Shown: in pieces, positions 6,283 through 59,881 of the stretch | Numbering within the stretch: the first letter of the stretch is position 1 | Layout of the letters: the number at the start of each line of letters is the position of its first letter | NCBI GenBank assembly: GCA_902790415.1 | Contig: CADARU010000001.1 | Coordinates: 50,071-114,070 of the forward strand | DNA length: 64,000 nucleotides | Direction: 5' to 3' | Source of the DNA: an uncultured Pseudomonadota bacterium | GTDB taxonomy: Bacteria > Pseudomonadota > Alphaproteobacteria > Rs-D84 | Made by a program: the position numbers and the translations under genes | The notes under the pieces: generated by a model | Told to the model about the DNA's origin: nothing | Seen by the model: only the letters and a program-made list of their open reading frames with translations | Database searches by the model: none

Positions 6283-7008
6283 TTAATCTGCGCGGACAAC
6301 ACGACAAAACACCACGCCATAAACTGCCGCTGCGCCCGCACGTTTTAACACGCGCGACAGTTCGGTAAATGTTGCACCCGATGTCATAACATCATCAACC
6401 AACAAAATCTTTTTACCACGAATTTTTTCTGGTTTTATTACATTAAAAACACCGCGAATATTTTCAAACCTTTGCTTGTGCGTTTTATGTCCCATATTTT
6501 CACGATATTTGCGCCGCACAGAATCAAAATCTAGGTGTGCATTGTATACGGCGGAAATTGGCCGCGCCAACAAAGTCGCCTGGTTATAACCACGATGAAA
6601 CAAACGCCGATTTGCCAATGGCACCGGCATAACAATATCTGGTGAAATATCAACATCACGCAGCGCCCAAATCATTGCACGCGACATAAATGTTGCATAC
6701 TTGATAACCCCACCATGTTTAAACGGCAACATTGCCGACCGCGACATATCATCATAGCGACACGTCGCACGAACAACATCCAATTCCCCCAGACCAGATG
6801 CACACACCGGACACATTGCACCCGGCATATTTTCATAACCATCTGGGAACGGGTAACCACATACCGCACAATGTGGTCCGTCAATCCAATCAAAACAACC
6901 CCAGCAATCACCACATAATTCACCATGAATTGAAACCGGCGCACTGCACAATGGACAAGACGCCGGAAACAAAAAATCTATTAAACGATGAAAAATTTTT
7001 CCTACCAA
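6283..7008 (-). CDS. ComF/GntX-family phosphoribosyltransferase-domain protein
   Basis: N-terminal Cys-rich zinc-finger (CPLCSAPVSIHGELCGDCW...CAVCGYPF) plus a C-terminal PRTase motif KKILLVDDVMTSGATF. Confidence 0.7.
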   Translation of the reverse strand: MVGKIFHRLIDFLFPASCPLCSAPVSIHGELCGDCWGCFDWIDGPHCAVCGYPFPDGYENMPGAMCPVCASGLGELDVVRATCRYDDMSRSAMLPFKHGGVIKYATFMSRAMIWALRDVDISPDIVMPVPLANRRLFHRGYNQATLLARPISAVYNAHLDFDSVRRKYRENMGHKTHKQRFENIRGVFNVIKPEKIRGKKILLVDDVMTSGATFTELSRVLKRAGAAAVYGVVFCRVVRAD

Positions 7009-8485: not shown

Positions 8486-9151
8486 TTAACGCAAACGATA
8501 GACCAATGGAACACCGGCACGCAACGCTTCCAACCGCGCCTTGTCCGCACCACGGTTTGCCAAATCTAATAAATATTTAGAAATTATTTGTGCGCGATAT
8601 TCAACAAAAGATGTATATAAATTACTGTTCACAACAATCGCATTTTCATGAATACCATGCGCTAATAATTCATATTTCTGACCACCATTATTATAAATTT
8701 CCCACTGGTCAGAATCACAACATGCCTGATTTACGCGAATCAAACTCTCGTGATAACGACGACGAATTGTTTCTTCGGGGACATCATGCCCCCCCAGCGC
8801 AACCCGTTGACGCACACGTGCGATATTTTGTTCAACCGATGGCAAATACACATATAAAAACATTATTTTATATCCATCGTTTCTTGCACGTGTTATAACC
8901 TTGTTATGAAAACCGCCCGCCAAAGTTGTTTCCAATGCAAAAGAATAATGCGCATCAAAAATATCATGCATATTTTGAATTAAAATACGTCCTGCCTGTA
9001 ATGAAGACACGTTTTGTTCGCGCGCAATATCATCACAATTTAAAAAATGTATTTCTGGGTTTTCACCAATCAATTCACGCGCCAGTGTTGTTTTACCACT
9101 GCCGTTCGCACCACCAATTAGATAAAAAATTTTGTCAGAATAAATATTCAT
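8486..9151 (-). CDS. Zeta-toxin-like / AAA_33 P-loop kinase
   Basis: Walker A (LIGGANGSGKTTLAREL) followed by ...HFLNCDDIARE, which resembles the zeta/PezT catalytic D-D region. The likely ATG start gives MNIYSDK; the track's upstream extension uses a TTG. It sits 38 nt downstream of the 541-aa repeat-protein gene on the same strand. Confidence 0.5.
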   Translation of the reverse strand: MNIYSDKIFYLIGGANGSGKTTLARELIGENPEIHFLNCDDIAREQNVSSLQAGRILIQNMHDIFDAHYSFALETTLAGGFHNKVITRARNDGYKIMFLYVYLPSVEQNIARVRQRVALGGHDVPEETIRRRYHESLIRVNQACCDSDQWEIYNNGGQKYELLAHGIHENAIVVNSNLYTSFVEYRAQIISKYLLDLANRGADKARLEALRAGVPLVYRLR

Positions 9152-9189
9152 GTCTGACAAAGTATAATACAAAAAATCACAAATGTCAA

Positions 9190-19883: not shown

Positions 19884-22800
19884 TTATTCCAAACTGGTCG
19901 TAAAGGAATCACCATAAGTACCGGCTTCATCCGGGCCAACATAGCAGACAATGTGGGAACCAACCTGGTCCAGCCATTCTTGTTGGGCCGCGGTCAATTC
20001 TTTATTATTCTTGGCTTTCAGTGCCTGGGTAACACCGATACCCGCAGCGACCGCACCACCCGTACCAACAATGCTAGATGCCAGCCATGTTCCAATCTTT
20101 GGTTTGTCACCATCATATCCTAATTTTTCTCTCACGGTATTAATGTGATTTTCAACATTAAAATTGCTGTCTACGGCGTTACACCCCTTGGCATTGCTGC
20201 AATGCACCGGTTTTTTCAATACAAACCCGTCAACAATGCCATCCGAAGTCAAAGTATAGCAGTCTTCATATTTATTATCTTCACCAGTTACTGCTTTCTT
20301 CGGTTCGCGTCCGCACAAGACATTACCAGCGTCTTTGAATCCCTCCCAATAATTAAGATTGGTTTCCAATTTTTTAACATCGCTGGATTTTGATACACCC
20401 GCTGTCGTATTCATCAAACCGCCCAAACCGGTTTTACGTTGCAACAGTTCGGTCAAACCATATCCGGCACCCGCCGCACCAATTGTTGATGCCGCAACCG
20501 CCCATTTTTGACCCGCGGTCAACTTGCCGTCTTCAGACAAACCTGTTTTCTTTGCGGCAACCGTTTTGCTAATTTTTTCTAATTCAGTTTGTGGTATCCA
20601 TGAACCGCATGTAATTGGATCACCAACCGCAAAATATGCCGTTGACCAATCTGTTCCATCGCGTAATTCTTTCTGGATATCCGGATCATCAGATTGAACC
20701 ATAACACGCACACGACAGAACGAACCATACAAATCGTTACTGGTTACAAATGCATTCGGTGTCAAACCATTGGTTGCATAGCTGTTCGGGACCTTGTTTG
20801 ATTTTAATTTCACCCATTGATATGTCGAACCCGTCATATCGTTACGTCCCATAATACCACCGTTGTTTTGTGCCAAGCACATTTGTTGTTCTTTGGTGAT
20901 TTTGGCATTATACTTTGCCTGGGCTTCTTTTTCGGCATCGGCCAAAACCTTTTGAAACAAGTTATCGGCCTGCATCTTGACCAGGTATTCTTGTTCTGGC
21001 ATGGTTACTTCAACCGAGAATAAGCACCCAAAATCGTTCATTGTATCACAAGGACCTGTTGCACCAATATCGGCAAACGACTTACACGTTGGTGTAGCAG
21101 ATGATTTATCAATACCACACTCACCTGTTGCAACGGTTTCAGCCTTGTATCCACCGCTGACCGCATCTGCCCATGTGCTGTGCGCCGCATCTGCACCACC
21201 CCATGTAACGGAATATTCATCACCTTTTGCAGCCTGTGATTTTGCAACCTCTACCCCAAAGTATTCTTCGCAGGCCTTGGCATTTACAACCGTTTCCGTA
21301 CACAAACCGGTTACAATAGTGAAATCCAAGACACCACCAACCTTGTTCATACTGTTGTTAAACGCGTTACTGGTATCGTCCGTACTGTATGTGGAACCCA
21401 TAACATCGGTTCTGCTGCGATAGCAATTTGTATAATCTGTTCCGCACATAGATTTAACGCAACTGGATACAGTATTGCGACATTGTTTCGCAAATTTATC
21501 CATTGCCGCATCATTATAAGATGCCGCCAATGTAGCATTTAACGAACCAACAACCGCCAACGGGTCTTTGAAACCGTCTTCGTATTGCGGGAACAAAATA
21601 CCAAATGCCGTCGAATCAGAATAACGATACGTTGAATCTTTGGATGCCGCATATTGACAATTCGCATCGGTGTTTACAACCGCTTCGCAAGCAGTTTTAA
21701 CTTCTTTGTATGCACGACCAGAATTAATACTGTTACCTTCGTTGTTACGAACCAATGCGTAACATACAGAACCAACACCGCCACCACAAGAACGCATCGC
21801 ACAAGATTTTATTGTTTCAACACACTTGTCTTTGGCCTTTTTATCAAACTTATCCGCCAACTGTTGAATTTTTGATGTCGTAACGGGATTGTTCATACGA
21901 GAATTATAGGCCTCGTTGAATATTTCACTGCGGTTATCTTCGTCTAGCAAATCCGCCGCCTTGGGCATTTGACCTTCGCCCAAGAATGTCGCATAACAAT
22001 ATTTGTTTGCACCAATTGTATCCAAACAAGCACCCTTGACATAACCTAAAACCTGGGACTTTTCAACAGTATCACCCGCCATCACACCAGAAATCAATGC
22101 AGATTTGTTAAGAGATGTCGCCGTTCCAGATGTTTGTGCATCCAATGCCTCGGCAATGTTGGCGGAAACTTTGTCAGAACCAACCATACATTTGAACGGG
22201 TTTTGTTCACACGCCGACATAAAGCATTGGTCAACAACCTTGTAACATGTGGAAACCGCGTTAACCGCCGCCAAATTCGCACCTTCGGTAATCATGATAC
22301 CAATACGACTGTCTGTGGCCGGTGTTGCCGCACGATTATCCGAACCGAATAATTCACGAACACCGTCCGCCTGGCAACGTGCCAAAGTGGATTCACAGAA
22401 AACCTTTTGCTTTTTAAATTCGGTATTATCGGTACACAATTCAAAGTCCGCGCCGCAAACACTTTCCTTCTTTAAGCATGATGTATATTTTTTAACACAA
22501 TTACTGGTATCCAAGCGGTTGCTAATCTCACTGGCCGCGATGAATTGACCCAAAATACTGCCCGCGGTGGGATAAATATATTCGCCATTGTTATCTTTGT
22601 TCGCCAAAGCGGTGATATTTGAATTACCAAACAGGGTGTTTACCGCCGCAGAAGAACACTGTAACAATGTGTTATTACAAATCGGTTTCTTGGCATAAAA
22701 CAATGTGTTGTTTGTACATTCTTCAAAATCAGAACCACATGCATCAGACCCGCGGATACATTCCGTATATGCGTCAACACATTCGTTTGCCGTCATCGTA

Positions 22801-23012
22801 GATTTATTTCCCGTCGTTGCGGTCCCCGTTGATGTCGTACCAATCGATGTGATTGTCGGCAAACGACGACTGCGTGCCGCAGCCATACCATTTGTCCCAG
22901 GGACAGTATAACTGACCCTTGATTCATTTGCCGGCGCAGTACGGGCCGCCCAAGACGCGTCAACCGCGCACAAAACCGCCATAAATCCAATGCAATTAGT
23001 CAAGAATTTCAT
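19884..23012 (-). CDS. Giant (1042 aa) cysteine-rich secreted protein with a C-terminal membrane anchor; hypothetical surface protein
   Basis: Signal peptide (MKFLTNCIGFMAVLCAVDASWA). Dozens of Cys, including a duplicated module C..YT.C......CG.DFE.CT.NT.F.K..C..TL..C....V..LFG at about aa 77-130 and 172-225. Two Gly-zipper hydrophobic segments near the C-terminus (WAVAASTIGAAGAGYGLTELLQRK and WLASSIVGTGGAVAAGIGVTQALKAK), then an acidic tail of about 40 aa. RBS AAAGGGGAAACGAGAATG and a TATAAT upstream. Confidence 0.65.
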   Translation of the reverse strand: MKFLTNCIGFMAVLCAVDASWAARTAPANESRVSYTVPGTNGMAAARSRRLPTITSIGTTSTGTATTGNKSTMTANECVDAYTECIRGSDACGSDFEECTNNTLFYAKKPICNNTLLQCSSAAVNTLFGNSNITALANKDNNGEYIYPTAGSILGQFIAASEISNRLDTSNCVKKYTSCLKKESVCGADFELCTDNTEFKKQKVFCESTLARCQADGVRELFGSDNRAATPATDSRIGIMITEGANLAAVNAVSTCYKVVDQCFMSACEQNPFKCMVGSDKVSANIAEALDAQTSGTATSLNKSALISGVMAGDTVEKSQVLGYVKGACLDTIGANKYCYATFLGEGQMPKAADLLDEDNRSEIFNEAYNSRMNNPVTTSKIQQLADKFDKKAKDKCVETIKSCAMRSCGGGVGSVCYALVRNNEGNSINSGRAYKEVKTACEAVVNTDANCQYAASKDSTYRYSDSTAFGILFPQYEDGFKDPLAVVGSLNATLAASYNDAAMDKFAKQCRNTVSSCVKSMCGTDYTNCYRSRTDVMGSTYSTDDTSNAFNNSMNKVGGVLDFTIVTGLCTETVVNAKACEEYFGVEVAKSQAAKGDEYSVTWGGADAAHSTWADAVSGGYKAETVATGECGIDKSSATPTCKSFADIGATGPCDTMNDFGCLFSVEVTMPEQEYLVKMQADNLFQKVLADAEKEAQAKYNAKITKEQQMCLAQNNGGIMGRNDMTGSTYQWVKLKSNKVPNSYATNGLTPNAFVTSNDLYGSFCRVRVMVQSDDPDIQKELRDGTDWSTAYFAVGDPITCGSWIPQTELEKISKTVAAKKTGLSEDGKLTAGQKWAVAASTIGAAGAGYGLTELLQRKTGLGGLMNTTAGVSKSSDVKKLETNLNYWEGFKDAGNVLCGREPKKAVTGEDNKYEDCYTLTSDGIVDGFVLKKPVHCSNAKGCNAVDSNFNVENHINTVREKLGYDGDKPKIGTWLASSIVGTGGAVAAGIGVTQALKAKNNKELTAAQQEWLDQVGSHIVCYVGPDEAGTYGDSFTTSLE

Positions 23013-25133: not shown

Positions 25134-26447
25134 TTATTGCAAATTCAACAAACGATATTTTTCCTGGACGGAATTTTGTATTTCGTGGATTGCGTTCATA
25201 TAATCAGACATTGTCGCGTTTTTATTTGCAACAACAGAACTGAATATACGCGTTGATGCCGAACCAGACACTGATTCACGACGTAAAACCCGACCCCCAA
25301 GGTCTGTTAATGTTGGTGAATTTATATCGTTCAAGTTCGCAATACCGTTTTTCACATCCCAAAAATAATTGGAATTTTCCGAATCTATGATTTTTTCACG
25401 AACCGTTAGGCGCGATGTCAAAGACCCCGCAAAACCAACCGTAACATACAGTGCGGTTATTCGCCCTTCGGTCATATCTAGTGTTTGATTTGCACGCAAA
25501 ATGGCAATGGAATTACTGTCGGTGGACAAACCACTTAACACCAAGTCATTAACCCACAGGTTATCTGTGGCCAGTTCCGAAAATTTACCGTATTCTGATA
25601 AATTGAATACATTTTTCGTAACGATATTTTTGGCATCACCACTAAGGGTGCCTGTTACGGTGGCAAGTCTGGTTTTATAATTTGAATCTAATATTGTTTG
25701 GTTATCAAATATTAAATCACGCGTATCTATATTGTTAACATTTAAAACTTCATCTATGCGCAGACCATTTGCATTTGCAAATGCAATGTTGGTAATATCG
25801 CGCATCCCCAGGTTTAACCCAGACAACATTGTCGCATCTGCCGCACTGTCAGACGGGACACGCCACAGATACAACGAATTATCACGATTCGCATTTGTTG
25901 TTTGAACAATACCAGAAGTCGCATCGATTCCCAAACTGGCCACATCTGTACGCCACGTACCAAACCCACCATAGGCACGCGCACCATCAACAAATCCAAT
26001 TTTGTCATCGCCCAAAGAAACTATTTCGCGCGTACGCATCGGTGTGATTTCCGAATCTGAATATACTATTACGCCTTGCAAGGCGGCCTGGTCGTTTTTA
26101 TCAACAGATTTTAAAATTCGTAACTGGTATTTATCAGACATTTCTTGGACAAAGGTTTCATCCAAGCCATAATCAGTTAAATCAGACAATTTTAACCTGA
26201 TTATATTTCGACCAATTGTTGTTAACATTTTATCTTTGTTATCGGCAATATAACCCTCTAACGCAGATTTAATCTTGTCCATTTGTCGTGTAACGCGTAT
26301 ATTTTCGGCACGCAAAATCGCACGTTGTTGATACTGATAAACAAAAGGCAACAATGTACCCGCCAATGCAATGGTTAATAAAAATTCCATCAACACTGTG
26401 CCGCGACAATTATTAGATTCAAAAAATTTTCGTTTTATTTTTTTCAT
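25134..26447 (-). CDS. Large (437 aa) protein with a TadE/prepilin-like N-terminus, paralog A
   Basis: The N-terminus MKKIKRKFFESNNCRG|TVLMEFLLTIALAGTLLPF has a positively charged leader, Gly, Glu at +5, a hydrophobic helix and Pro at about +19, as in TadE-like pseudopilins. It shares LSDL..YGL and L.L.GM(R/G)DI.N motifs with the two upstream paralogs. Confidence 0.55.
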   Translation of the reverse strand: MKKIKRKFFESNNCRGTVLMEFLLTIALAGTLLPFVYQYQQRAILRAENIRVTRQMDKIKSALEGYIADNKDKMLTTIGRNIIRLKLSDLTDYGLDETFVQEMSDKYQLRILKSVDKNDQAALQGVIVYSDSEITPMRTREIVSLGDDKIGFVDGARAYGGFGTWRTDVASLGIDATSGIVQTTNANRDNSLYLWRVPSDSAADATMLSGLNLGMRDITNIAFANANGLRIDEVLNVNNIDTRDLIFDNQTILDSNYKTRLATVTGTLSGDAKNIVTKNVFNLSEYGKFSELATDNLWVNDLVLSGLSTDSNSIAILRANQTLDMTEGRITALYVTVGFAGSLTSRLTVREKIIDSENSNYFWDVKNGIANLNDINSPTLTDLGGRVLRRESVSGSASTRIFSSVVANKNATMSDYMNAIHEIQNSVQEKYRLLNLQ

Positions 26448-27730
26448 TTTTCTACTTTGCCCGGTTGTATATCAATTATATGTAACTGAGGTGCGCTGGT
26501 TAAACCGGTGCGCCAATCGCTGTTAAACATATTTTTAAAATCTTCTTTGTGCGGCATTGATGGTATGGATGCGCGTGTTAATTTAAATTCCTTGAACGCA
26601 GGTGGCGTATAAGACGGAAATACCCACGAACCGAATCTGATTGGCGGATTGGTTGATACTAACAATTCGCCAGATACGGTCAAACCAAAATCTTGATAGA
26701 AAACAATTTCATCGGTATGAATATACGGTGTATAAACAGTCCCGGCATTTATCCCGGTAAAGGCACCTATTGTTTTTAACGAATCAGATTTTATAACCAA
26801 ATCCCGCCCAACATTTACGGATTTTCCAACTTTGACCCTATCGGCGGTTATACGACCATTTGTTGTAAAACCTGATGCATTTAATGTTCGCACCTGAATA
26901 TTTCTAAACCCACTGATATCACCCATCGCACGCAATATGTCAATGTTAACATCATCGCCACGTATTTCCGCGCCGCCAGAAAAATAAACGTTTTCAGAAT
27001 TTATTTCATTTGCATCTACAAACATTGCATTAACATTGGAAACCTTTAAAGATTTTCCAATTGCACCACCAACATTATAAATATCATTTCCACCCATGTT
27101 TAAATCGCGTTCCATCATATTTAACTTTTCTGTATCCGAAGAAGCGCGATGTAAAAATTTTTCACTGTCAACATCGGAAACATCGCGCGATATTTTATAA
27201 ACCAAACGCCCCGGTTCAAAATCCGGTGATGTAACCGCCCACGAATCGCCATACGCAACCCCATCCATACCAATAATCGCCGCATCGCCACCGATGTTTT
27301 TTGCAATCTGTGCCATGCGTTTTGTTGGCATATCAAAATCAAACATTAAATACACATCAACCACAGAACCATTTTTTATTGAATACTTGTCAATAAATCC
27401 GGCGGTTGCAGAACCAGAAAATGCCGCCAATTCTTCATCAGACAATTTGATTTGTGCCTGTTGTGGCCACAGGTCTTGATTCATACGAACAAAATTCAAC
27501 ACATCGTTTCGTAAACTAATTATATCATTTGCGATTGCCAAATTATGCATCGAATGTGTCGCATCGGTTATCATAGAATACGTAAAAGGTGCCGCAACCG
27601 CAACAATGACAAAAGCCAATAAAACCTCTACCAAACCGCCACCACGTTGGGCGCAAACAGATTCCTTGGTTGGACGAGAAAAAATTCTAAATACACCCAC
27701 TTTTTCCCTCCTTGATACAAATCGCCGCAT
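26444..27730 (-). CDS. Large (428 aa) protein with a TadE/prepilin-like N-terminus, paralog B
   Basis: ...CAQRG|GGLVEVLLAFVIVAVAAPF (Glu at +5, Pro after the helix). It shares motifs with paralogs A and C (KLSDEEL..., RDLNMGGNDIYNVGGAIG). It overlaps paralog A by 4 nt and paralog C by about 44 nt; the exact start is uncertain. Confidence 0.5.
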   Translation of the reverse strand: MRRFVSRREKVGVFRIFSRPTKESVCAQRGGGLVEVLLAFVIVAVAAPFTYSMITDATHSMHNLAIANDIISLRNDVLNFVRMNQDLWPQQAQIKLSDEELAAFSGSATAGFIDKYSIKNGSVVDVYLMFDFDMPTKRMAQIAKNIGGDAAIIGMDGVAYGDSWAVTSPDFEPGRLVYKISRDVSDVDSEKFLHRASSDTEKLNMMERDLNMGGNDIYNVGGAIGKSLKVSNVNAMFVDANEINSENVYFSGGAEIRGDDVNIDILRAMGDISGFRNIQVRTLNASGFTTNGRITADRVKVGKSVNVGRDLVIKSDSLKTIGAFTGINAGTVYTPYIHTDEIVFYQDFGLTVSGELLVSTNPPIRFGSWVFPSYTPPAFKEFKLTRASIPSMPHKEDFKNMFNSDWRTGLTSAPQLHIIDIQPGKVEK

Positions 27731-29060
27731 TTATTCTGGATTCTAGACGTTGCCAAAACACATACTGACATACAATATATTGCGCCAACGATTTTTGGTT
27801 ATATGTGTTTCCATATGATTCTATGATTGTTTTACACGTAACCGTATCAGATGAATCTTGGGTTGGGTATGCCAAAATAGAAAACGCATTATTATCAACC
27901 CCATCAATTAACACATCAGGCAGCATAGATGTCCCGGCCGGCCGCACATCTAAAATCGCCGCACCAGATGCACCACGTTGCAACCCACCAGATGTTTGGT
28001 CACGCAATGTAACATTGGACGAATATAAATACGCGGTGTCTATGCCACTGGATGTGTTATAAGATAAATCATCTTCGTCAATATAAACATCTTGACCACG
28101 CGTTAAATTTATAAAAGAACTGACATCCAAACGTTCGGTACTAAAACTAATACGACTGGTTATGACATTACCACGAACATCCCATTTTTCAGGACCATAA
28201 AATCCAGTTCGGCCTTCACTCATATTCAACGCATCAACCGATGCATCGACCGCCAACATATTTCCTGTATCACCAAATTTAGAAACCGTTTTAGCAAACA
28301 CATCATTGGTGTTTAATGTACCGCGCACCACCGACAACGATGATTTTCCAGATTCATTTTGAAATATCGTCTTGTCCGCATTTATTTGTAGAATTTTATT
28401 TCTGACGTTACGACCCGCCTCGGTTCCAAACACAGACAATTTGTCAAAAATACCGGTATCAAAATTCGCACGTCTGGCGAAAATATTTTCTGTGTTAACA
28501 AAATTAAACCCCCCCATATCTAAATCGGTCAGGAATTCCGCAACATCAGAATTACGTTCATTACGCCGAACAATATCAGAATAGTTTTCCGCCAACGGTA
28601 TACCTATTTCGATAACGTCTGAATCTGATGCCGGGTTATACGATGCATAAAAGCCAATTCGCCGCGCCAATTCTGCACGTTGCATTTTGGTTAATTCACC
28701 ACCCGCAACACGTACCAACGCGTAAACATCCGTTTCGTTTTTTATAATCACCACAGATATATCTTGGCCCAGTGGGGTTCGTGCAATAAATCCCAACGGT
28801 AACCCATACGGTTCCAACAAATCAGATAAATTATTCCCCGACACAACCGTTGTGTCATAAGGTAACGCATCAGAGTTTTCCAAGACATACAAACGTGCCG
28901 CATTTTTAACCGTTTCCAGTTGGTGTGTTGTGGCATACATTTGCGCCCCAATATCACGCGATGCCAACCGCCGGGTAAAGAAAGGCATGAAAGCAAAAAC
29001 CAATGTTAATGCCAATAACGCCTGTAATAAAAAATTTCCCCTCTCGTGATGCAAAAACAT
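27687..29060 (-). CDS. Large (457 aa) protein with a pilin-like hydrophobic N-terminus, paralog C
   Basis: MFLHHERG|NFLLQALLALTLVFAFMPFF (Gln at +5 instead of Glu). It shares LSDLLEPYGL and TDLDMGGFNFVNTENI motifs with paralogs A and B. First gene of the operon, with a divergent promoter region at 29061-29217. Confidence 0.5.
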   Translation of the reverse strand: MFLHHERGNFLLQALLALTLVFAFMPFFTRRLASRDIGAQMYATTHQLETVKNAARLYVLENSDALPYDTTVVSGNNLSDLLEPYGLPLGFIARTPLGQDISVVIIKNETDVYALVRVAGGELTKMQRAELARRIGFYASYNPASDSDVIEIGIPLAENYSDIVRRNERNSDVAEFLTDLDMGGFNFVNTENIFARRANFDTGIFDKLSVFGTEAGRNVRNKILQINADKTIFQNESGKSSLSVVRGTLNTNDVFAKTVSKFGDTGNMLAVDASVDALNMSEGRTGFYGPEKWDVRGNVITSRISFSTERLDVSSFINLTRGQDVYIDEDDLSYNTSSGIDTAYLYSSNVTLRDQTSGGLQRGASGAAILDVRPAGTSMLPDVLIDGVDNNAFSILAYPTQDSSDTVTCKTIIESYGNTYNQKSLAQYIVCQYVFWQRLESRINAAICIKEGKSGCI

Positions 29061-31152: not shown

Positions 31153-31169
31153 AACACATGGGGCGAGAG

Positions 31170-31625
31170 ATGAAAACAGAATCCGGACGTTCTTTGATTG
31201 AAATTATTGGTGTGTTGGCCATTACCGCGGTTATGACGGCGGCGACGATTGCGATGTATAACACCATTCGTAAAAATCAAACGCATACAATCGCATCGGC
31301 CGAACTGCGTGAAGTGGCAAAAAACATAAAATTATTATTTGATATGCGTGGCGATTATACCGGGGTTTCGGTGGACTGGCTGGTCAAGGCCGGCGCATTA
31401 AAAAACGACAAGGCCCCCTTGGGAGAATCTTGGAGTATAGAGCCAACATCAGATGCAAGTGGTTTTGTTATAAACCTGCGTGGGTTGTCGCACAGTAATT
31501 GCGATTTCTTGGCGGTATCGGCCCCCAGTTGGGCATCATCCATTATCGTAAACGGTCAAGAAAACGAATCTTCGCCGATTTGTTTTTCAGGTAACACGAA
31601 CAATATTACATTCATTGCACAATAG
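31170..31625 (+). CDS. Type IV pilin / pseudopilin-like protein (about 151 aa)
   Basis: MKTESG|RSLIEIIGVLAITAVMTAATIAMY is a class III signal peptide-like N-terminus with Glu at +5. A C-terminal Cys pair (NCDFLAV...SSPICF) resembles a pilin D-region. RBS GAGAG 3 nt upstream. It lies 18 nt after dnaX. Confidence 0.55.
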   Translation: MKTESGRSLIEIIGVLAITAVMTAATIAMYNTIRKNQTHTIASAELREVAKNIKLLFDMRGDYTGVSVDWLVKAGALKNDKAPLGESWSIEPTSDASGFVINLRGLSHSNCDFLAVSAPSWASSIIVNGQENESSPICFSGNTNNITFIAQ

Positions 31626-35201: not shown

Positions 35202-35250
35202 AATATTACCCCCTATATCAAGGGGGTGTTATTGGTATAAAATCCGCAAC

Positions 35251-35868
35251 CTACCATGTTGGTGCATGGTCGCCTTCTTTGACGATTGGTTTTTCATCTT
35301 CCCATACGGTCAATCCTGTTTTAACATCGGTCAATGCCAATTGCAGGTAATATTCTACACGCGTATCAACAGATGAAAACCATCCAGATTGCAATTTCAA
35401 ATTGCGCTGTATCATTTTTCCAGACATCGACATATTTGGTGCAATCAAAGTACCCTGAGACACAATAGTTGATGCATCGTATTCACTGTTTCCACGCGTG
35501 GCGCGAACGTTATGCGTTGTTTCGTCTTGGGCAGATTTACCATTTTGAAACGAACTGGAAACCTTGGCACGACCGGAATTTACCAATGTTTTACGAATCT
35601 TTTGTGTTAAAATATCGGTATCAAAACGTTGCATAGTGTCGTTTTTGATTTCACCCATCGCAATAACAGGATTCTTAATTTTTGCAAAAGCACCACTGTT
35701 AATCATAGATTTTGTCATTTCTTCGGCGGTTGCGGTCCAATCACGATATTCCAATTCCATAACATTTTGCATCGCCGCAACTTCTTTTTCGTTATTCAGG
35801 TCAACAACACGTGTTTCACCGCATCCAATCAATGCCGCACATAATGCAACCGGAAATAATTTTTTCAT
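35251..35868 (-). CDS. LpoB-like lipoprotein (penicillin-binding protein activator family)
   Basis: Lipobox (ALIGCG). YRDWTATAEEMTKSMINSGAF...NDTMQRFDTDILTQKIRKTLVNSGRAKVSS and ...EYYLQLALTDVKTGLTVWEDEK are collinear with the conserved blocks of the E. coli LpoB C-terminal domain. Confidence 0.55.
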   Translation of the reverse strand: MKKLFPVALCAALIGCGETRVVDLNNEKEVAAMQNVMELEYRDWTATAEEMTKSMINSGAFAKIKNPVIAMGEIKNDTMQRFDTDILTQKIRKTLVNSGRAKVSSSFQNGKSAQDETTHNVRATRGNSEYDASTIVSQGTLIAPNMSMSGKMIQRNLKLQSGWFSSVDTRVEYYLQLALTDVKTGLTVWEDEKPIVKEGDHAPTW

Positions 35869-35886
35869 ATTTTCCCCCTTTCGTTT

Positions 35887-37131
35887 TTATTTTAACTTTA
35901 TTACCTTGGTATCTTCGTTATTTGGTCCGACACGAACATAAACCAAATAATTAGACCCATCATAAGGTGTATTCATTTTCATAACCAGATTACCACTGCC
36001 ACGCAATTCAATCAAGCCACTTTTATTATTTTCAACCCGCAACACCGATATTGTTTTGGGCAGGGTTGGCCACGTACGAACCTCGGCCGCAGTGGTTACT
36101 TCTGAATAAATCGTTGACAAGATTCCCATCAAAGGTGCGGATGCACTGCGTGAATTATACATGGATGTTTGTAATGCGGTACGCCCTGTTGCGGCGGCCA
36201 ACGCACGCAAAGAATCGTTCGTTCTGTATTCTTTGTATTCGGTCATAAACATTGCATCAACATCAGCCAATTTTTGTGCGCCCGATATATTTGTAAAATT
36301 ATTCGTAAACACCGGTTCTGACATCGCAATAGTAACAATAGACATACCATCACCCATAAACACAGGCACCGACACGCGCCGTTCATGCAGTTTTGGCGCA
36401 AAACCATCTTCGATAAAAACCCAAACTGTATTTTTCGGTGTAATATGTTTTTCCGCCAATGACAAATCGGTGGCAACAAAGGTGTTGTTTGGACTCATCC
36501 CATTTGCGCGTGCCAAATATGTTTTTGCATCACTAAAATCACCGTTGTTTAGGAAATAAATCCCCGACAAATACATTAATGCCGGATTCATAATATCTGT
36601 ATATGCTGCCCACATAGAATTTTCAGATTCTAACTTTTTGTTCAATTCTGCATTTTCAATAATTTTGCTTTGGTTTGATTCAATCGTATTTTTATATGCC
36701 AACGACATATCTTGCTGGCGGCCATAAGATTGATTAATAATTACGCGCGCATCGTTATAACGCCCGGTTGCCAATGCCGCCCATAACTGATAATAAGACA
36801 CAAATAACGCGTCCATCATGTACGGTTTATATTCGTTAACAGATGCACCAAATACCAAAGATGCGGCTTCACGTGAAAAACTGCCCCCGGTGGTATCTAT
36901 GTTACGCCGATTAAATTCTTCATAGGCCGCATCTGCGCCACTGTAATCATCATTATGGAACAATGTATCGGCCGTAATTAACAAGTCCAAATTATTTTGT
37001 GATGAAAAATTTGTATCCGTGGTGGCGGCTGTCATATAATTTTCCCGCACAGAATCAAGACGCGCCTCGGTCGTGGCGGCACACGCAGATAACAAAACAC
37101 ATACAGTTAAAAATTTTATAGAACGAAACAT
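35887..37131 (-). CDS. Hypothetical lipoprotein (414 aa), co-transcribed with the T4CP and LpoB-like genes
   Basis: Lipobox (VLLSACAA). No recognisable catalytic motif. The start lies 3 nt after the stop of the VirD4-like gene. Confidence 0.5.
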   Translation of the reverse strand: MFRSIKFLTVCVLLSACAATTEARLDSVRENYMTAATTDTNFSSQNNLDLLITADTLFHNDDYSGADAAYEEFNRRNIDTTGGSFSREAASLVFGASVNEYKPYMMDALFVSYYQLWAALATGRYNDARVIINQSYGRQQDMSLAYKNTIESNQSKIIENAELNKKLESENSMWAAYTDIMNPALMYLSGIYFLNNGDFSDAKTYLARANGMSPNNTFVATDLSLAEKHITPKNTVWVFIEDGFAPKLHERRVSVPVFMGDGMSIVTIAMSEPVFTNNFTNISGAQKLADVDAMFMTEYKEYRTNDSLRALAAATGRTALQTSMYNSRSASAPLMGILSTIYSEVTTAAEVRTWPTLPKTISVLRVENNKSGLIELRGSGNLVMKMNTPYDGSNYLVYVRVGPNNEDTKVIKLK

Positions 37132-37133
37132 AA

Positions 37134-39398
37134 CTATTGCTTTGCCACCGGTGTCAATTCACGCAATTCTTTTGCCTGGGGGTCAAAGAATTTCGGCGTA
37201 CCTGCATATTCCAATATTGCATGATGGCTTGGTACCAAAAATTCCGGCAACGGGGAACAGCGACCCATTTTTACATAACTAGACATACGTTCATCATTAA
37301 ACGACATCCTGATGTCGGCCTTAATCGGGCGATGATACCAACCTTCGTAAAGAATAATTGCTTCGGATGTCTTGCTTTTTGGACCAACTGTTTTTAATTG
37401 CATAATATCAAATTCGGAAAACAACGGTTCGTCTTTCTTTTCTTCCTCTTCTTTTTCTTTGCCATCCGGCCCTTTTACTTTTTTCTTTTTGATTGTCGTT
37501 TTCTTTGGCATCATTTCCGCGAAACGTTTCGCCGATTCAATATCATTTTGACGCAAAATAATCTTGGCCGCCGTTGTTGATATAATGGTAGATGCCGCAT
37601 CATTACCGTATTTTTCAGAAATCTGGTGTAAATCCTGACCAATCAACAGATAAGATATCTTCTGTCCACGTCCAACGTCTGGCCCCTGGATAACAGCGGT
37701 CATTTTTTGCATCTTGGGCATTTCGTCTAACAAGAACAATACCGGATACGGTCCCATTTTTTGTCCGTTACGTCCAACCTTGTCTGGTGGATTTGCCAAC
37801 AAAAAGTTTGACATTGTTTCAACAAACATTGATGTAATTGGATTCAAGGCCTTGGCATCAACCATGTTAATAGACAAATATACCGTTGCCGGCTTTATTT
37901 TGCCATCGGTCGGGTCAACAATTCCACGCATATCGGAAAAATGAAAGTCAGAATGACTGGTCCGGTTACGTACGGCGGCATTTCTGAATATGGCCAGACC
38001 CGTCAAAATCGTTGATAAAATAGAGCCACGTTCGGTTGACGGGGTGTTGGCTAACTTGGTTAATTCTGCAACCGCACGATTTGAATAAGAAAAGGAACGT
38101 GCTTCGTTAACCGCCGATTCCAACCAGTCCTTCATCGGGTCGGCCATCATAACAGATTGGTCCCCTTGGCGTTGACGTTCCGCCAATTCATTGGCAACGG
38201 CAATTTGCGCTTCGGTAATCCAATCCAACATCAAAGAATATGATGCCTCTTTGCCCAACCATGCCTGGGGAATATTTGCCCAGGAACCAACATGAACGTA
38301 ATTCATGGCATTTAATTGCTTGTTTTTAATAAGCGCCATCGCCGCAAACGCATTTGGGTCATTTACCATTGAAAAATAGTAATCCGATAAAATCGCCGCA
38401 TCTTCATCATCAAATTGCCCCGATTGCAACCGGGAATAGAAATAATCATCGGCCTTGGCACGTTCAATTTTTGAAATAATAAATTGGACAAAACCCGCCA
38501 AACCGGCACGCCCCGCCTGGGTCCAGTGGGGGTCGGCACTGCTGCCTTCGGCATCAGGAACCAAAACATCGCACATATAATCAACGTACAATTCGCGTTG
38601 TTCCGGACTGGCCGGGACATGTTCGGGCGAAAGTGGATTCCACGATGGATAATAAATACCCTTGTCTGGTTCATCTTGGCCACCCCAATCCATAATAAAC
38701 ACCGGTCCAACATGCTTTGAACGATATGCACTGGATTTTGTATCCAATTCAGGTTTGGGGTCGTTAATAATCATCGAAACATCGGTGCATTCAAATATAG
38801 TCGGCAAACACACACCTTCGGTTTTACCGGTTCCCGGAGGTGCCAAACACAAAACAGATGTTGTTTTAGGTAACTTTAAAACCTTGTTCTTGAAATAGCC
38901 CAACACAATGATAATACCATCAAACAGACCCATGGCCTTGACATCTTTTTCGTTTGCGGTACGTCCAGATTTTTTATCATAAATATCTTTACCGTTGGGG
39001 TCAAATTCGTCCATTAACGATTTATCAGTTAACAGGAAATAAGCAATCATCGGGAACAACGGTACCATACAGGCAAAATCAGGATGCATTACACAACGAA
39101 TAAACCAATTCGGCACCCCCGCCAAGACCGAAAAACCCAATGTTGAAAACATTTGTGATAAATACACCTTGGTCCAAACCCATGTTGCGGGCGACCAGCC
39201 ATACCGCCACAAATGTTCAAAAACAAACGAAATTCCAAATGCCAATGCACAAACAATCCAAACCGTTGTCAACCAACGTACCCGCCAAAACGCCTGTGCA
39301 ATCGGTATTTGTAAATGTTCAGTATAAGCACTGGACTTAAAAATATTAAGCCCTTTACTGTCCTTGCCTGCGGATAAAATCTTGAACTTGTCTGGCAT
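37134..39398 (-). CDS. Type IV secretion coupling protein (VirD4/TraG/DotL family ATPase)
   Basis: N-terminal TM helices. Walker A in TraG-like context ...SVLCLAPPGTGKTEGVCLPTIFECTDVSMIINDPKPEL (compare TraG ...APTRSGKGVGLVIPNLL...D.KGE). Walker B VLFLLDEMPKM. Lys/Glu-rich C-terminal tract (KKKKVKGPDGKEKEEEEKKDE). Confidence 0.6.
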   Translation of the reverse strand: MPDKFKILSAGKDSKGLNIFKSSAYTEHLQIPIAQAFWRVRWLTTVWIVCALAFGISFVFEHLWRYGWSPATWVWTKVYLSQMFSTLGFSVLAGVPNWFIRCVMHPDFACMVPLFPMIAYFLLTDKSLMDEFDPNGKDIYDKKSGRTANEKDVKAMGLFDGIIIVLGYFKNKVLKLPKTTSVLCLAPPGTGKTEGVCLPTIFECTDVSMIINDPKPELDTKSSAYRSKHVGPVFIMDWGGQDEPDKGIYYPSWNPLSPEHVPASPEQRELYVDYMCDVLVPDAEGSSADPHWTQAGRAGLAGFVQFIISKIERAKADDYFYSRLQSGQFDDEDAAILSDYYFSMVNDPNAFAAMALIKNKQLNAMNYVHVGSWANIPQAWLGKEASYSLMLDWITEAQIAVANELAERQRQGDQSVMMADPMKDWLESAVNEARSFSYSNRAVAELTKLANTPSTERGSILSTILTGLAIFRNAAVRNRTSHSDFHFSDMRGIVDPTDGKIKPATVYLSINMVDAKALNPITSMFVETMSNFLLANPPDKVGRNGQKMGPYPVLFLLDEMPKMQKMTAVIQGPDVGRGQKISYLLIGQDLHQISEKYGNDAASTIISTTAAKIILRQNDIESAKRFAEMMPKKTTIKKKKVKGPDGKEKEEEEKKDEPLFSEFDIMQLKTVGPKSKTSEAIILYEGWYHRPIKADIRMSFNDERMSSYVKMGRCSPLPEFLVPSHHAILEYAGTPKFFDPQAKELRELTPVAKQ

Positions 39399-39454
39399 TA
39401 TGTTATGATTATATCAGAAAAAACAAAATTTATAAAGACAGGAAATGTATTTTT

Positions 39455-57190: not shown

Positions 57191-57303
57191 TTTATCCATA
57201 CGCAGATATTAAAGGAAAAAAAAACCTTTTTCAACATAAAAAATTATTGTTTTTATATCAAAAAAAATAAATAATGTTTCATATAAAAAAAAGAGTCGAG
57301 AGA

Positions 57304-58629
57304 ATGAAGTTTCGTTTTTTTTCAATGTGTTGTGCATTGTTTCCTTGTGTCGCTGTTGCGGCCAACGATGATTGTATGTACAGAAAAAACGTACCTGATA
57401 CCGTTATGGATTTACAGGCGGTAATTGAAATGGGACTGTGCCGCAATCCGGAAACCGCGTCTGCATATTATTCATTGGAGGCCGCGCGTTTAAACAAAAA
57501 CACCGGGTATGCATCATACCTGCCATCGGTAAATGCAAAAGCATCCATGGACAAAGATTGGCATAATCACGAATGGGACAAATGGTCGTACGGTGCATCT
57601 ATATCGGCATCTTATCTGATTTTCGATTTTGGGAAACGTTTGGCTGATTTGAACCAGATGTCGGCAACATGGCGCGCAACAGGATTTGAATACGACGAAC
57701 GCGTACAAAACTATGTCTATGGTTTAATCGGGTCTTATTACGCGTTGTTAAATGCGGATGCCGATGTAGAAAGTGCAAAATCTCTGCAATCTGTTGCACA
57801 AACCGCATTAGATACCGCAAACAAAAAATTCAAGGCCGGTGTCGTTGCCAAGGCCGATGTATTAAAGGCCGAAACAACCAAGGCATCTCGTGATTTAGAC
57901 CTGGAACGTGCAAAAAATAATCGCGAAATCGCCAAGGGTACACTATTAACCAAAATGGCTTTTCCGGCCGACCAAGAAATTGTTATCGCAGATATGTCTC
58001 ACGATTTTGGCAGTGTGCGCGAAAACAAAAACATAGATGAACTGATTAAAATTGCACGCGAAAAACGCCCTGACCTGTTACGCGCAACAGCCAGCAAAGA
58101 TGCCGCATGGCACCGCAGAAACAGTGCGTTTTTGAAAAATCTGCCCAGTATTAGCGCAACCGGAACATTATCATGGAACGATGACGAAGCCCGCTTTTTT
58201 GGCACTGGCAGTGAACACGTCAACGGTTCGATTGGTATTCGTGCATCTATGCCGATATTTGCCGGTTTTGCAAACATTTATGGTCTGCGCAGCGCCCAGG
58301 CATCTTATGACAGTGCCAAAGAGCAACTGCGCGGAACAAATGATGCCGCAATGTTAGACGTATTTACCGCATACCAGAATTATAAAACCGCCCAGACCGT
58401 TTTAACACAAACCGAAACACTGTTGAAATCCGCAACGGAAAGTGAACGTGTTACCGCCGGTATGTACAAGGTTGGACGCGCAACAATGTTGGATTGGCAA
58501 ACCGCACAATCAGAACTGGTGTCCGCACAAAAACAAAATAATGCGGCAAAATATGACCTGTTTACAAAACGTGCGGCGGTCGCATTGGCTATTGGTGATA
58601 TAAAATCAGAATTAGAAAAGGATAATTAA
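57304..58629 (+). CDS. TolC-like outer-membrane efflux protein (OEP family)
   Basis: Signal peptide (MKFRFFSMCCALFPCVAVAA) and two coiled-coil/beta repeats with OEP-like motifs (…LLNADADVESAKSLQSVAQTALDTANKKFKAGVVAKADVLKAE… repeated in the second half). Confidence 0.7.
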   Translation: MKFRFFSMCCALFPCVAVAANDDCMYRKNVPDTVMDLQAVIEMGLCRNPETASAYYSLEAARLNKNTGYASYLPSVNAKASMDKDWHNHEWDKWSYGASISASYLIFDFGKRLADLNQMSATWRATGFEYDERVQNYVYGLIGSYYALLNADADVESAKSLQSVAQTALDTANKKFKAGVVAKADVLKAETTKASRDLDLERAKNNREIAKGTLLTKMAFPADQEIVIADMSHDFGSVRENKNIDELIKIAREKRPDLLRATASKDAAWHRRNSAFLKNLPSISATGTLSWNDDEARFFGTGSEHVNGSIGIRASMPIFAGFANIYGLRSAQASYDSAKEQLRGTNDAAMLDVFTAYQNYKTAQTVLTQTETLLKSATESERVTAGMYKVGRATMLDWQTAQSELVSAQKQNNAAKYDLFTKRAAVALAIGDIKSELEKDN

Positions 58630-59861
58630 TGAAAAAAAATCCGAAAAAAGATTCTAACGCAGAAATTGTGCAAACAACTGAAAAGAAAGCCACGTTTGTT
58701 AAACGTTTCTTTCGGTGGATTTGGCGACATAAATGGTGGTCGTCTTTGATATTGTTGGCATTGATTGGTGGGGCAATATTTTTATTTATCGGCGGAAAAT
58801 CTGCCAAGCCAGAATATGTTACGGTAAATATTGTTCGTGGCAATATTCGCCAGGTTGTAACCGCAACCGGTGAAATAAACCCGGTAAATACGGTCAGTGT
58901 CGGTTCTCAAGTTTCTGGCACAATCGAAGATATATTTGTGGACTATAATTCACATGTAACCCAAGGACAAATTTTATTAAAAATCGAACCATCTGTTCTG
59001 CAAGCATCTGTGGACGAGGCCAAGGCCGCATTAGATTCGGCGCAATCACAATTAACATTGGCAAAAAACGAATACAACCGTAATCGCTCACTGTTCCAAG
59101 ATGGTTTTATCGCACGTGCCGAAATGGAACAATCCCAGGCAACATACGAACAGGCAACACAAACCGTTAAGCGTATGCAATCACAATATGAACGCGCGGT
59201 TACAAACCTGGGGTATGCGACAATTTCTTCACCGGTTGATGGCACCGTTATTTCGCGCAAGGTCGACAAAGGGCAAACAGTTGCCGCATCGTTCCAAACG
59301 CCTGACTTGTTCGAAATTGCCGAAGATTTAACAAAAATGCAAATCGAAACCGCCGTATCCGAGGCCGATATTGGTGTTATCAAAGAAGGTCAAAATGTTA
59401 CTTTTACTGTTGATGCATACCCAACCAAGACCTTTAACGGTACCGTACGTCAAATTAGATTATCACCAACAACGACATCTAACGTTGTTGTTTATACCGT
59501 TATCATCGATGTTGATAATTCTGATTTAAGTTTAATGCCGGGAATGACCGCATTTGTAACCATACTTATTGCCGAAGCCAAGGATATTTGGAAAACCCAA
59601 AATGCGGCACTGTTAGTTCGTAACTTTGCAAATATTATTCCTGATGCGCCAAAAGATTTAGACCCCAAAAATCATATGGCCATATTGCGTGATGGCAAAG
59701 TTATATACATTGAATACACCAAGGGGTTGGTTACCGCAACCGAAACCCAAATTATTTCAGACCAACTGCAAAAAGGCGACAAGGCCATCGTTGGTCGCAT
59801 CGGTCAATCAACCAGTTCTGCCGCAACCCAGGGCAAACGTCGTGGGCCGGGACCAATGTAA
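58629..59861 (+). CDS. Periplasmic adaptor (HlyD/MacA membrane-fusion protein)
   Basis: N-terminal TM, the …TATGEINPVNTVSVGSQVSGTIEDIFVDYNSHVTQGQILLKIE… lipoyl/barrel motif and a long coiled-coil hairpin. It overlaps the stop of the TolC-like gene. Confidence 0.8.
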   Translation: MKKNPKKDSNAEIVQTTEKKATFVKRFFRWIWRHKWWSSLILLALIGGAIFLFIGGKSAKPEYVTVNIVRGNIRQVVTATGEINPVNTVSVGSQVSGTIEDIFVDYNSHVTQGQILLKIEPSVLQASVDEAKAALDSAQSQLTLAKNEYNRNRSLFQDGFIARAEMEQSQATYEQATQTVKRMQSQYERAVTNLGYATISSPVDGTVISRKVDKGQTVAASFQTPDLFEIAEDLTKMQIETAVSEADIGVIKEGQNVTFTVDAYPTKTFNGTVRQIRLSPTTTSNVVVYTVIIDVDNSDLSLMPGMTAFVTILIAEAKDIWKTQNAALLVRNFANIIPDAPKDLDPKNHMAILRDGKVIYIEYTKGLVTATETQIISDQLQKGDKAIVGRIGQSTSSAATQGKRRGPGPM

Positions 59862-59881
59862 AAAAACAAAAATATAACACA

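Follow-up and report, generated by a model that had tools for sequence, protein, structure and literature searches.

A solitary VirD4-type coupling protein of the Rs-D84 lineage and its lipoprotein neighbours: a candidate receptor for a scattered type IV secretion system

A 64-kb stretch of contig CADARU010000001.1 (positions 50,071 to 114,070; hereafter the window, to which all coordinates refer unless a locus is named) from an uncultured alphaproteobacterium of the order Rs-D84 contains three tightly packed minus-strand open reading frames (ORFs) of 754 aa (37134-39398), 414 aa (35887-37131) and 205 aa (35251-35868). The first encodes a type IV coupling protein (T4CP), and the other two encode lipoproteins. 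We consider it probable (about 0.6) that the T4CP is the substrate receptor of a chromosomal, vertically inherited type IV secretion system (T4SS) with scattered genes, and that the lipoprotein pair is an accessory to it. The T4CP would most likely receive substrates for a machine whose genes are spread around the reduced genome of Candidatus Enterousia. This reading is based on the conservation of virB3-virB4 in the lineage, their presence on the same contig as the T4CP gene in related genomes, and the lack of a second T4CP nearby.

Enterousia belongs to the order Rs-D84, with genomes of less than 1 Mb and a presumed partner-dependent lifestyle (PMC12306168). The only genomic study of this order that the literature search turned up reported no secretion system, and “hypothetical membrane proteins” were the sole tools of interaction that it suggested (PMC12306168). 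No link of Rs-D84 to type IV secretion appeared in the literature searched, within which the genes described here would be the first indication of T4SS ATPases in Rs-D84/Enterousia. The related loci are labelled Candidatus Enterousia or come from alphaproteobacterial metagenome-assembled genomes (MAGs) of rumen and gut, some of the MAGs bearing the label “Rickettsiales bacterium”.

The coupling protein and its ATPase motifs

Judged by its profile matches, the 754-aa protein (37134..39398, minus strand) is a member of the VirD4-type T4CP family that lies outside every named subfamily. An earlier note on this DNA had called it a VirD4/TraG-family coupling protein, and the call holds: the best profiles are all T4CP families, namely PF02534 (T4SS-DNA_transf; E 1.7e-44, 152.9 bits, cut-off 20.1), PF12696 (TraG-D_C; E 4.8e-19, 69 bits, cut-off 22) and PF10412 (TrwB_AAD_bind; E 4.8e-17, 62.3 bits, cut-off 20.5), rather than FtsK or another AAA+ family, the counter-case that the note had raised. 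Among the curated NCBIfam T4CP subfamilies (VirD4 PRK13897/PRK13850, IncP TraG, Ti TraG, F TraD and CD1115) every cut-off is missed; CD1115 scores best (128.9 vs 250), with VirD4 at 80.3 vs 728 and IncP TraG at 84.9 vs 674.

The Walker A motif APPGTGKT (residues 186-193; 38820..38843, minus strand) aligns with that of canonical VirD4, and its P188, G189, G191, K192 and T193 are invariant across 22 orthologues. The T4CP-typical DPKPE (residues 213-217) is conserved in the same 22 proteins, as are D558 and E559 of the Walker B motif LFLLDEMP (residues 554-561; 37716..37739, minus strand), both invariant. From these intact motifs the T4CP is predicted to be ATPase-competent. The transmembrane region claimed for its N-terminus is also borne out, as a hydrophobic, presumably membrane-anchoring stretch (residues 42-124; 39027..39275, minus strand) that is conserved in the alignment and in which simple hydropathy gives one strong segment (42-60, 2.07) and two weaker ones (86-104, 1.25; 106-124, 1.48). 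The Lys/Glu-rich C-terminal tract that had been thought unusual is real (residues 633-659; 37422..37502, minus strand; charged fraction 0.59 over residues 629-662) but does not distinguish this protein: it is a loop whose position is kept and whose length and sequence vary across T4CPs, and it aligns with an uncharged loop of canonical VirD4. An AlphaFold2 (AF2) model built from the 22-sequence alignment was poor (predicted local distance difference test, pLDDT, 50; predicted template-modelling score, pTM, 0.37), and a PDB sequence search gave no match.

The nearest annotated T4CPs (~30% identity) are the VirD4 proteins of Erythrobacter aureus (WP_115418087.1) and Sphingosinicella sp. p1 (WP_165356653.1), whose genes end contiguous VirB2-B3-B4-...-B11-VirD4 operons on alphaproteobacterial megaplasmids. 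The window protein shares their family and domain order, with anchor, Walker A, DPKPE, all-alpha domain, Walker B, GQD/TTAAK and C-terminal PLPE in common, and the alignment with operon-encoded VirD4 (32% identity, residues 146-721) runs through all ATPase motifs. Unlike the plasmid genes, the window gene is chromosomal and core, lies apart from vir genes, encodes an insertion of ~58 aa and has lipoprotein genes on its 3' side.

A core chromosomal gene

The T4CP has more than 1,300 homologues, the closest of them (63-78% identical) from uncultured Alphaproteobacteria, and a scan of species-representative genomes yielded 80 T4CP loci, one of which is on a complete chromosome of 716 kb. Identity ranges from 59 to 78% across 84 related loci, and in 83 of these rsmE-rluB adjoins the T4CP gene divergently, among housekeeping genes; the single exception, L047, reaches just 146 bp beyond the T4CP gene on its upstream side. 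The GC content of the gene is like that of its surroundings, and no integrase, relaxase, tRNA junction or repeats were found near it. Given this synteny, sequence identity, native GC content and lack of a nearby integrase or relaxase, the T4CP is a vertically inherited core gene and not the cargo of a mobile element.

T4CPs are nevertheless typical cargo of conjugative elements, and relaxase and mating-pair genes are not adjacent to this one, as would suit a decaying remnant of an integrated conjugative element whose adjacency to the lipoprotein genes is accidental. Against such a remnant stand the full-length ORF, motifs invariant in 22 orthologues, the level of identity over 84 loci, and the same site beside rsmE in nearly all of them, in DNA of native composition that shows no integrase, tRNA junction or repeats in the vicinity. 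This explanation, effectively refuted by the shared gene order, the sequence conservation and the native GC content, we hold to be very improbable.

virB3 and virB4 at separate chromosomal sites

The T4CP had been described as an orphan, and within the window this stands: neither Pfam scans of essentially all sizeable ORFs nor hidden Markov models (HMMs) from a canonical VirB operon identified a further T4SS gene in the 64 kb. The VirB proteins of the Erythrobacter and Sphingosinicella megaplasmids served as probes against all fetched loci. A contiguous T4SS operon with its own VirD4, the other counter-case of the note, was not found in the neighbourhoods searched either. The orphan state is, however, a local effect: related genomes keep virB3-virB4 at separate chromosomal sites.

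Locus L049 encodes, after a VirB3-like ORF and ~6 kb from the T4CP, a VirB4 that is 32% identical to plasmid VirB4 over 790 aa (E 5e-123). Used as a query, this VirB4 retrieved more than 1,400 homologues of 78-96% identity from Alphaproteobacteria MAGs, and those homologues with an NCBI name are all annotated “hypothetical protein”. Locus L070, which holds the T4CP, and locus L093, which holds virB4, share 4,630 bp at 100% identity and are parts of one Ca. Enterousia contig, on which virB3-virB4 lies 15.1 kb downstream of the T4CP on the same strand. In a second lineage (L073/L114, 98.8% overlap) the distance from T4CP to virB3-virB4 is ~15.8 kb, L049 being of a third. The joining of L075 and L094 into one contig, suggested by their common length of 23,525 bp, was rejected, as they share no sequence overlap; equal lengths of P0087 and P0414 (418,380) and of L081 and P0404 (201,727) are not counted as evidence. 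In related genomes virB3-virB4 form an islet of their own, 6-16 kb or more from the T4CP gene.

Across 83 virB4 neighbourhoods virB3 is present in 80, and no second T4CP and no lipoproteins were found within 10 kb of virB4. A secreted protein of ~207 aa with an HExxH motif (p207) is encoded in 78 of the 83. Its HExxH takes the form SHEDEHIR, it belongs to no Pfam family, and its gene lies downstream of virB3-virB4 (islet at L092 9704-13034 and L093 9701-13038; 83 loci, L092-L174). On the 3' side of virB3-virB4 in L093 (14251-21894) there is a probable integrated element with Bro-N, a phage integrase, an AAA_15/AAA_21 ATPase, an autotransporter, a REP_ORF2-G2P-like replication protein and HTH_17.

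A subfamily marked by an insertion

The alignment revealed an insertion of ~58 aa in the window T4CP (residues 318-377; 38268..38447, minus strand) with the signature DYF...YY..M...NY.H.G.W..IP, or in a longer form DYF...YY..M...NY.x.G.W..IP..W.G. It is present in all 16 aligned solitary chromosomal T4CPs, down to 28% identity, and absent from the two operon-encoded plasmid VirD4s, though overall similarity is about equal; the segment had no match in 72,556 plasmids. The insertion falls by position inside the Pfam TrwB_AAD_bind match region and is likely to be located in the all-alpha domain. An exhaustive search of 1.84 billion representative proteins gave graded full-length relatives, from 63% down to 28% identity. 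Taken together, these proteins constitute a new, signature-bearing subfamily of solitary chromosomal T4CPs.

Five distant T4CPs were examined for context, and all are solitary and in housekeeping neighbourhoods. The lipoprotein pair is not present at the outgroup T4CP loci of the same subfamily (30-45% identity); instead, four of the five distant genes are directly preceded by a homologous gene of pentapeptide-repeat type, with stop and start abutting or overlapping. These partner genes (L086 9006-9998; L087 8772-10001; L089 8747-9988; L088 4227-5429) encode 330-413 aa and form one family beside T4CPs that are 30-39% identical. Pfam pentapeptide-repeat families match three of the four, and no homologue was found in the Enterousia loci or in the window.

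Long acidic, low-complexity C-terminal extensions with a common WW(L/M)D(D/E)..F near the end were observed in P0247, P0257, P0294, P0305, P0308, P0261 and P0263. Several distant subfamily members have degenerate Walker motifs (DN for DE in P0261 and P0263), which suggests that some of them have lost ATPase activity; the motifs of the window T4CP are intact.

The lipoprotein pair

The T4CP gene is predicted to be the first of a three-gene transcription unit that continues with a lipoprotein of tetratricopeptide-repeat (TPR) type and one of the LpoB family. The prediction is based on the spacing of the genes and on the signals around them. Only 2 nt (TAG-TT-ATG), rather than the 3 nt first counted, separate the T4CP stop from the ATG of the 414-aa lipoprotein, whose gene is followed by an 18-nt spacer with a strong Shine-Dalgarno sequence (AAAGGGGG) before the LpoB-like gene. 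A promoter-like site (TTTATA, 17 nt, TG-TATAAT extended -10; 39408..39436, minus strand; 10/12 consensus matches with TG) lies just 5' of the T4CP start, inside the 56-nt divergent intergenic region shared with rsmE, although it is itself a prediction and such sites are no more numerous in the region than in shuffles. A GC-rich terminator-like hairpin (ACCCCCTTGATATAGGGGGT, then a T-rich tail; 35208..35227, minus strand) was found by a terminator scan between the LpoB and VIT1 genes, and terminator-like sites are enriched in the region (15 vs 6.1 +/- 2.7 in shuffles).

The lipoboxes expected from the earlier claim of two lipoproteins are there, LLSAC for the 414-aa and LIGC for the 205-aa protein. 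The 414-aa lipoprotein (35887..37131, minus strand) belongs to no known family and matches TPR families at sub-threshold level only. Its AF2 model (pLDDT 78, pTM 0.79) predicts a TPR-like helical N-terminal domain and an alpha/beta C-terminal domain, and a Foldseek search of this model against the PDB returned only generic TPR matches (E >= 0.022). All of its 470 homologues are “hypothetical” and come from Rs-D84-type MAGs only. Comparison of the family with VirB8, VirB9 and VirB10 by hhalign gave no similarity (probabilities 0.2-0.5%).

The 205-aa lipoprotein (35251..35868, minus strand) had been termed LpoB-like, which is right at the level of the family: it passes both PF13036 (LpoB; E 3.1e-32, 111.9 bits, cut-off 22.3) and TIGR02722 (128.9 bits, cut-off 110.55). 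A PDB sequence search with this protein gave no match and no solved LpoB structure. E. coli LpoB, the activator of PBP1B, is an outer-membrane lipoprotein of similar size; the two share their Pfam and NCBIfam matches and can be aligned over the globular domain. However, identity is 23% over 153 aa (pairwise E 4e-5), and the window protein is without the ~50-residue Pro-rich linker of E. coli LpoB, its domain starting ~20 residues after the lipid-anchored Cys as against ~55. The genomic neighbours also differ, being ycfL-lpoB-thiK-nagZ in E. coli. Given this low identity and the missing linker, a role as activator of PBP1B is not to be assumed; the only penicillin-binding genes seen in the loci of relatives are PBP2/RodA. 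No link of VirD4 to LpoB appeared in the literature searched.

How tightly is the pair bound to the T4CP? It follows the T4CP gene directly in 50 of 79 informative loci and is absent within 10 kb in the other 29. In the 50 loci with the trio the spacers have medians of 5.5 and 15 nt, and a 4-nt overlap occurs between some genes. OZ246409.1 (716 kb) and CACWNX010000001.1 (689 kb) carry the trio, and CATOOF010000001.1 lacks the pair. All 50 of the 414-aa homologues detected in T4CP loci sit directly after the T4CP, as does one divergent homologue. The trio is found in all major T4CP clades, including the most divergent (59-61% identity), where downstream synteny differs, and also in a divergent MAG that was reached by way of the lipoprotein; on these grounds it is probably ancestral, with a root state that is ambiguous by parsimony. 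The T4CP tree nevertheless requires at least eight independent changes between presence and absence of the pair, among them precise deletions that put the T4CP beside VIT1 or fabZ.

A comparable gene pair is known from Helicobacter and Campylobacter, where the TPR lipoprotein HP0018/Cj0089 is encoded directly upstream of the LpoB homologue HP1457/Cj0091, is implicated in envelope maintenance and has no link to a T4SS (PMC11394524; PMC3100323). In both cases the gene of a ~410-470-aa TPR lipoprotein lies directly 5' of an LpoB-family gene of ~205 aa. The window pair differs in being linked to a T4CP and in belonging to another phylum than the Campylobacterota, and the 414-aa protein is likened to HP0018/Cj0089 by layout; no shared family model matches the two.

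The evidence favours the view that the pair is an accessory envelope module, predicted to be co-transcribed with the T4CP yet dispensable for it, because it changed state at least eight times with the T4CP kept, is absent at outgroup T4CP loci, shows no similarity to VirB8/9/10 and has a counterpart in the independent Campylobacterota operon. By analogy with the HP0018/Cj0089 operon, the two lipoproteins would most likely be a cell-envelope module that is carried along with the T4CP in one transcript and may help to fit the machine into the envelope or to stabilise it there, and the T4CP would not need them. A recurrent but dispensable operon of T4CP, TPR lipoprotein and LpoB-fold lipoprotein appears to be new.

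Comparison with the split vir loci of Rickettsiales

The vir genes of Wolbachia, Anaplasma and Ehrlichia fall into two operons, virB3-B6 and virB8-D4 (PMC4705124). Wolbachia virD4 shares its transcript with wspB, an outer-membrane protein gene on its 3' side that 17 of 21 supergroup-B strains lack, and Anaplasma and Ehrlichia resemble Wolbachia in having virD4 with an outer-membrane protein gene on its 3' side (PMC4705124). The system proposed here is like these rvh systems in being chromosomal and vertically inherited in a reduced alphaproteobacterial genome, with split loci that include a virB3-virB4 islet, and, as in Wolbachia, in having a dispensable envelope-protein gene 3' of virD4 in one (here predicted) unit. 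Vir genes at several chromosomal islets, a mark of rvh, are likewise seen in the relatives, where the T4CP and virB3-virB4 lie apart among housekeeping genes.

The likeness does not extend further. Unlike the rvh systems, that of the window belongs to the order Rs-D84 and not to the Rickettsiales (PMC12306168); its T4CP gene opens its unit instead of ending a virB8-B9-B10-B11-D4 operon, with no VirB8-11 within 10 kb in the T4CP loci searched; virB3-virB4 are followed by p207 and not by virB6 paralogues; and the genes downstream of the T4CP encode TPR-type and LpoB-fold lipoproteins and not a Wsp/Msp beta-barrel. The hallmark paralogues of rvh (virB4/6/8/9) were not seen in the fetched neighbourhoods of the lineage. 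The scattered, rvh-type T4SS envisaged in the earlier note is thus half retained: separate virB3-virB4 sites in relatives agree with a scattered system, whereas the order, the lack of a virB8-virB11-virD4 operon and the failure to find VirB6/8/9/10/11 or paralogues speak against the rvh type. The Rickettsiales vir systems offer the closest analogy in organisation, and membership of rvh is not supported.

Alternative explanations

Several points weigh against a scattered T4SS with accessory lipoproteins. HMMs and tblastn detected no VirB2, VirB5, VirB6 or VirB8-VirB11, either in the window or in the fetched surroundings of the T4CP and virB4 genes, ~2.9 Mb in all (for VirB8-11, only those up to L094); these surroundings are a small and biased share of each genome. 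The Vir proteins of the lineage are divergent, VirB4 reaching only E 4.6e-7 on Pfam, and other T4SS components could therefore have been missed. All proven T4CP-virB4 links, from flank overlaps and from a metagenome scan with a VirB4 alignment, are in lineages without the lipoprotein pair, and these scans linked virB4 to no trio-bearing genome, that of the window included. Co-transcription of the trio is itself a prediction. Finally, the trio stays together where its flanks are rearranged, and its tie may be closer than “accessory” implies. Family membership, intact motifs, operon-like anatomy, conserved synteny, virB3-virB4 in the lineage and the repeated loss of the pair are thus observed, whereas we infer that the T4CP works with the VirB3 and VirB4 of its lineage, that there is a secreted substrate and that the lipoproteins have the roles proposed.

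If the tie is indeed closer, both lipoproteins could be integral to a minimal, divergent T4SS: anchored in the outer membrane, they would replace or supplement the VirB7/VirB9/VirB10 core complex or tie the machine to peptidoglycan, and the operon would be one functional unit. The probable ancestry of the trio, ambiguous as its root is, would fit this, as would its spread over all major T4CP clades, its spacing down to a 4-nt overlap, its persistence where flanking synteny is broken, the invariable position of the 414-aa homologues directly after the T4CP, and the fact that VirB7/9/10 were not detected in the window and the loci searched. Against this, the pair is missing from 29 of 79 informative loci through at least eight events, with the T4CP kept and no copy found within 10 kb; the lineages with a proven T4CP-virB4 link all do without the pair, hhalign assigns the 414-aa family a probability of less than 1% against VirB8/9/10, the T4CPs of the subfamily's outgroup loci are accompanied by other genes, and a similar lipoprotein pair exists in Campylobacterota that is not tied to a T4SS. 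On balance we consider integral lipoproteins unlikely. A more radical form of the idea is slightly less likely still: a stripped-down machine of which only VirB3, VirB4 and the insertion-bearing T4CP are left, with the lipoproteins (elsewhere the pentapeptide-repeat partner) as new structural or adaptor parts that would join the inner-membrane ATPases to the outer envelope, as a tool for exploiting partner cells. It is the repeated loss of the pair that makes such structural parts improbable. At much the same low level we place the possibility, raised for an envelope function in the earlier note, that the T4CP subfamily has left the T4SS channel for some other translocation or envelope task, in which its partners would differ by lineage (lipoproteins in Rs-D84, pentapeptide-repeat proteins elsewhere). 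All subfamily members examined stand alone among housekeeping genes, without a vir gene in the nearest 10 kb, the ~58-aa insertion is specific to the subfamily, partner genes vary by lineage and include the pentapeptide-repeat genes that abut or overlap the T4CP gene, Walker motifs are degenerate in some distant members, and most T4SS core genes were not located in the loci searched. However, VirB3-VirB4 is conserved throughout the lineage, on the same contig as the T4CP and with no other T4CP nearby, and it would be less economical to suppose that this VirB4 has no coupling protein; the window T4CP keeps all catalytic motifs and can be aligned with operon-encoded VirD4 from end to end, and split vir loci are well known in Rickettsiales. 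For recruitment to another envelope function no positive evidence was found, the pair being lost where the T4CP is kept, absent from outgroup loci and similar to the Campylobacterota operon. A scattered T4SS, with the T4CP as its receptor, is the reading retained.

Other features of the window

Prepilin-like genes are present at 25134-29060 (minus strand) and 31158-31625 (plus strand), including three distant paralogues (457, 428 and 437 aa) that belong to no Pfam family and have a type IV prepilin-like N-terminus (Gly, hydrophobic helix, Glu/Gln near +5). A 155-aa protein encoded beside dnaX and an OmpA-like lipoprotein has an N-terminus of the same type. Matches of these proteins to N_methyl are sub-threshold only (E 0.1-0.23), and orthologous unannotated genes adjoin dnaX in relatives (L001). 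They may belong to a divergent pilus or pseudopilus system, which is absent from the account of Rs-D84 (PMC12306168). At 6283-7008 (minus strand) a ComFC-like protein with a double zinc ribbon and a phosphoribosyltransferase domain is encoded next to a 463-aa protein without a family. Alongside the pilin-like genes, it is a hint that the bacterium may be capable of DNA uptake.

A complete rRNA operon (16S, 23S, 5S) occupies 14283-19227 (minus strand), with only tRNA-Ile in the 16S-23S spacer, where tRNA-Ala was not found. Beside it, the stretch 8486-14000 is of low GC content (0.35-0.37 vs ~0.42 elsewhere) and is possibly foreign or fast-evolving DNA; it contains a zeta-toxin-like P-loop protein (8486-9172) and ORFs of 541, 204 and 150 aa without a family. 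An ORF of 1042 aa (19884-23012, minus strand), which has no Pfam match even at a permissive threshold, lies between the rRNA operon and the gene of a pseudouridine synthase. A tripartite efflux/export set of TolC-like, HlyD-like and MacB-type ABC (ATPase + permease) proteins is encoded at 57274-61842 (plus strand), and is the only other recognisable envelope-spanning transporter in the window.

Significance

In annotation, “LpoB” should not be read here as “PBP1B activator”. After wspB and msp2 of Wolbachia/Anaplasma, the unit would be the second independent case in which virD4 and dispensable envelope-protein genes share one transcript, here a predicted one. For the widespread Rs-D84/Enterousia bacteria of gut and rumen, the T4CP together with VirB4 offers a concrete candidate, open to test, for the means by which they may interact with their hosts or neighbours.

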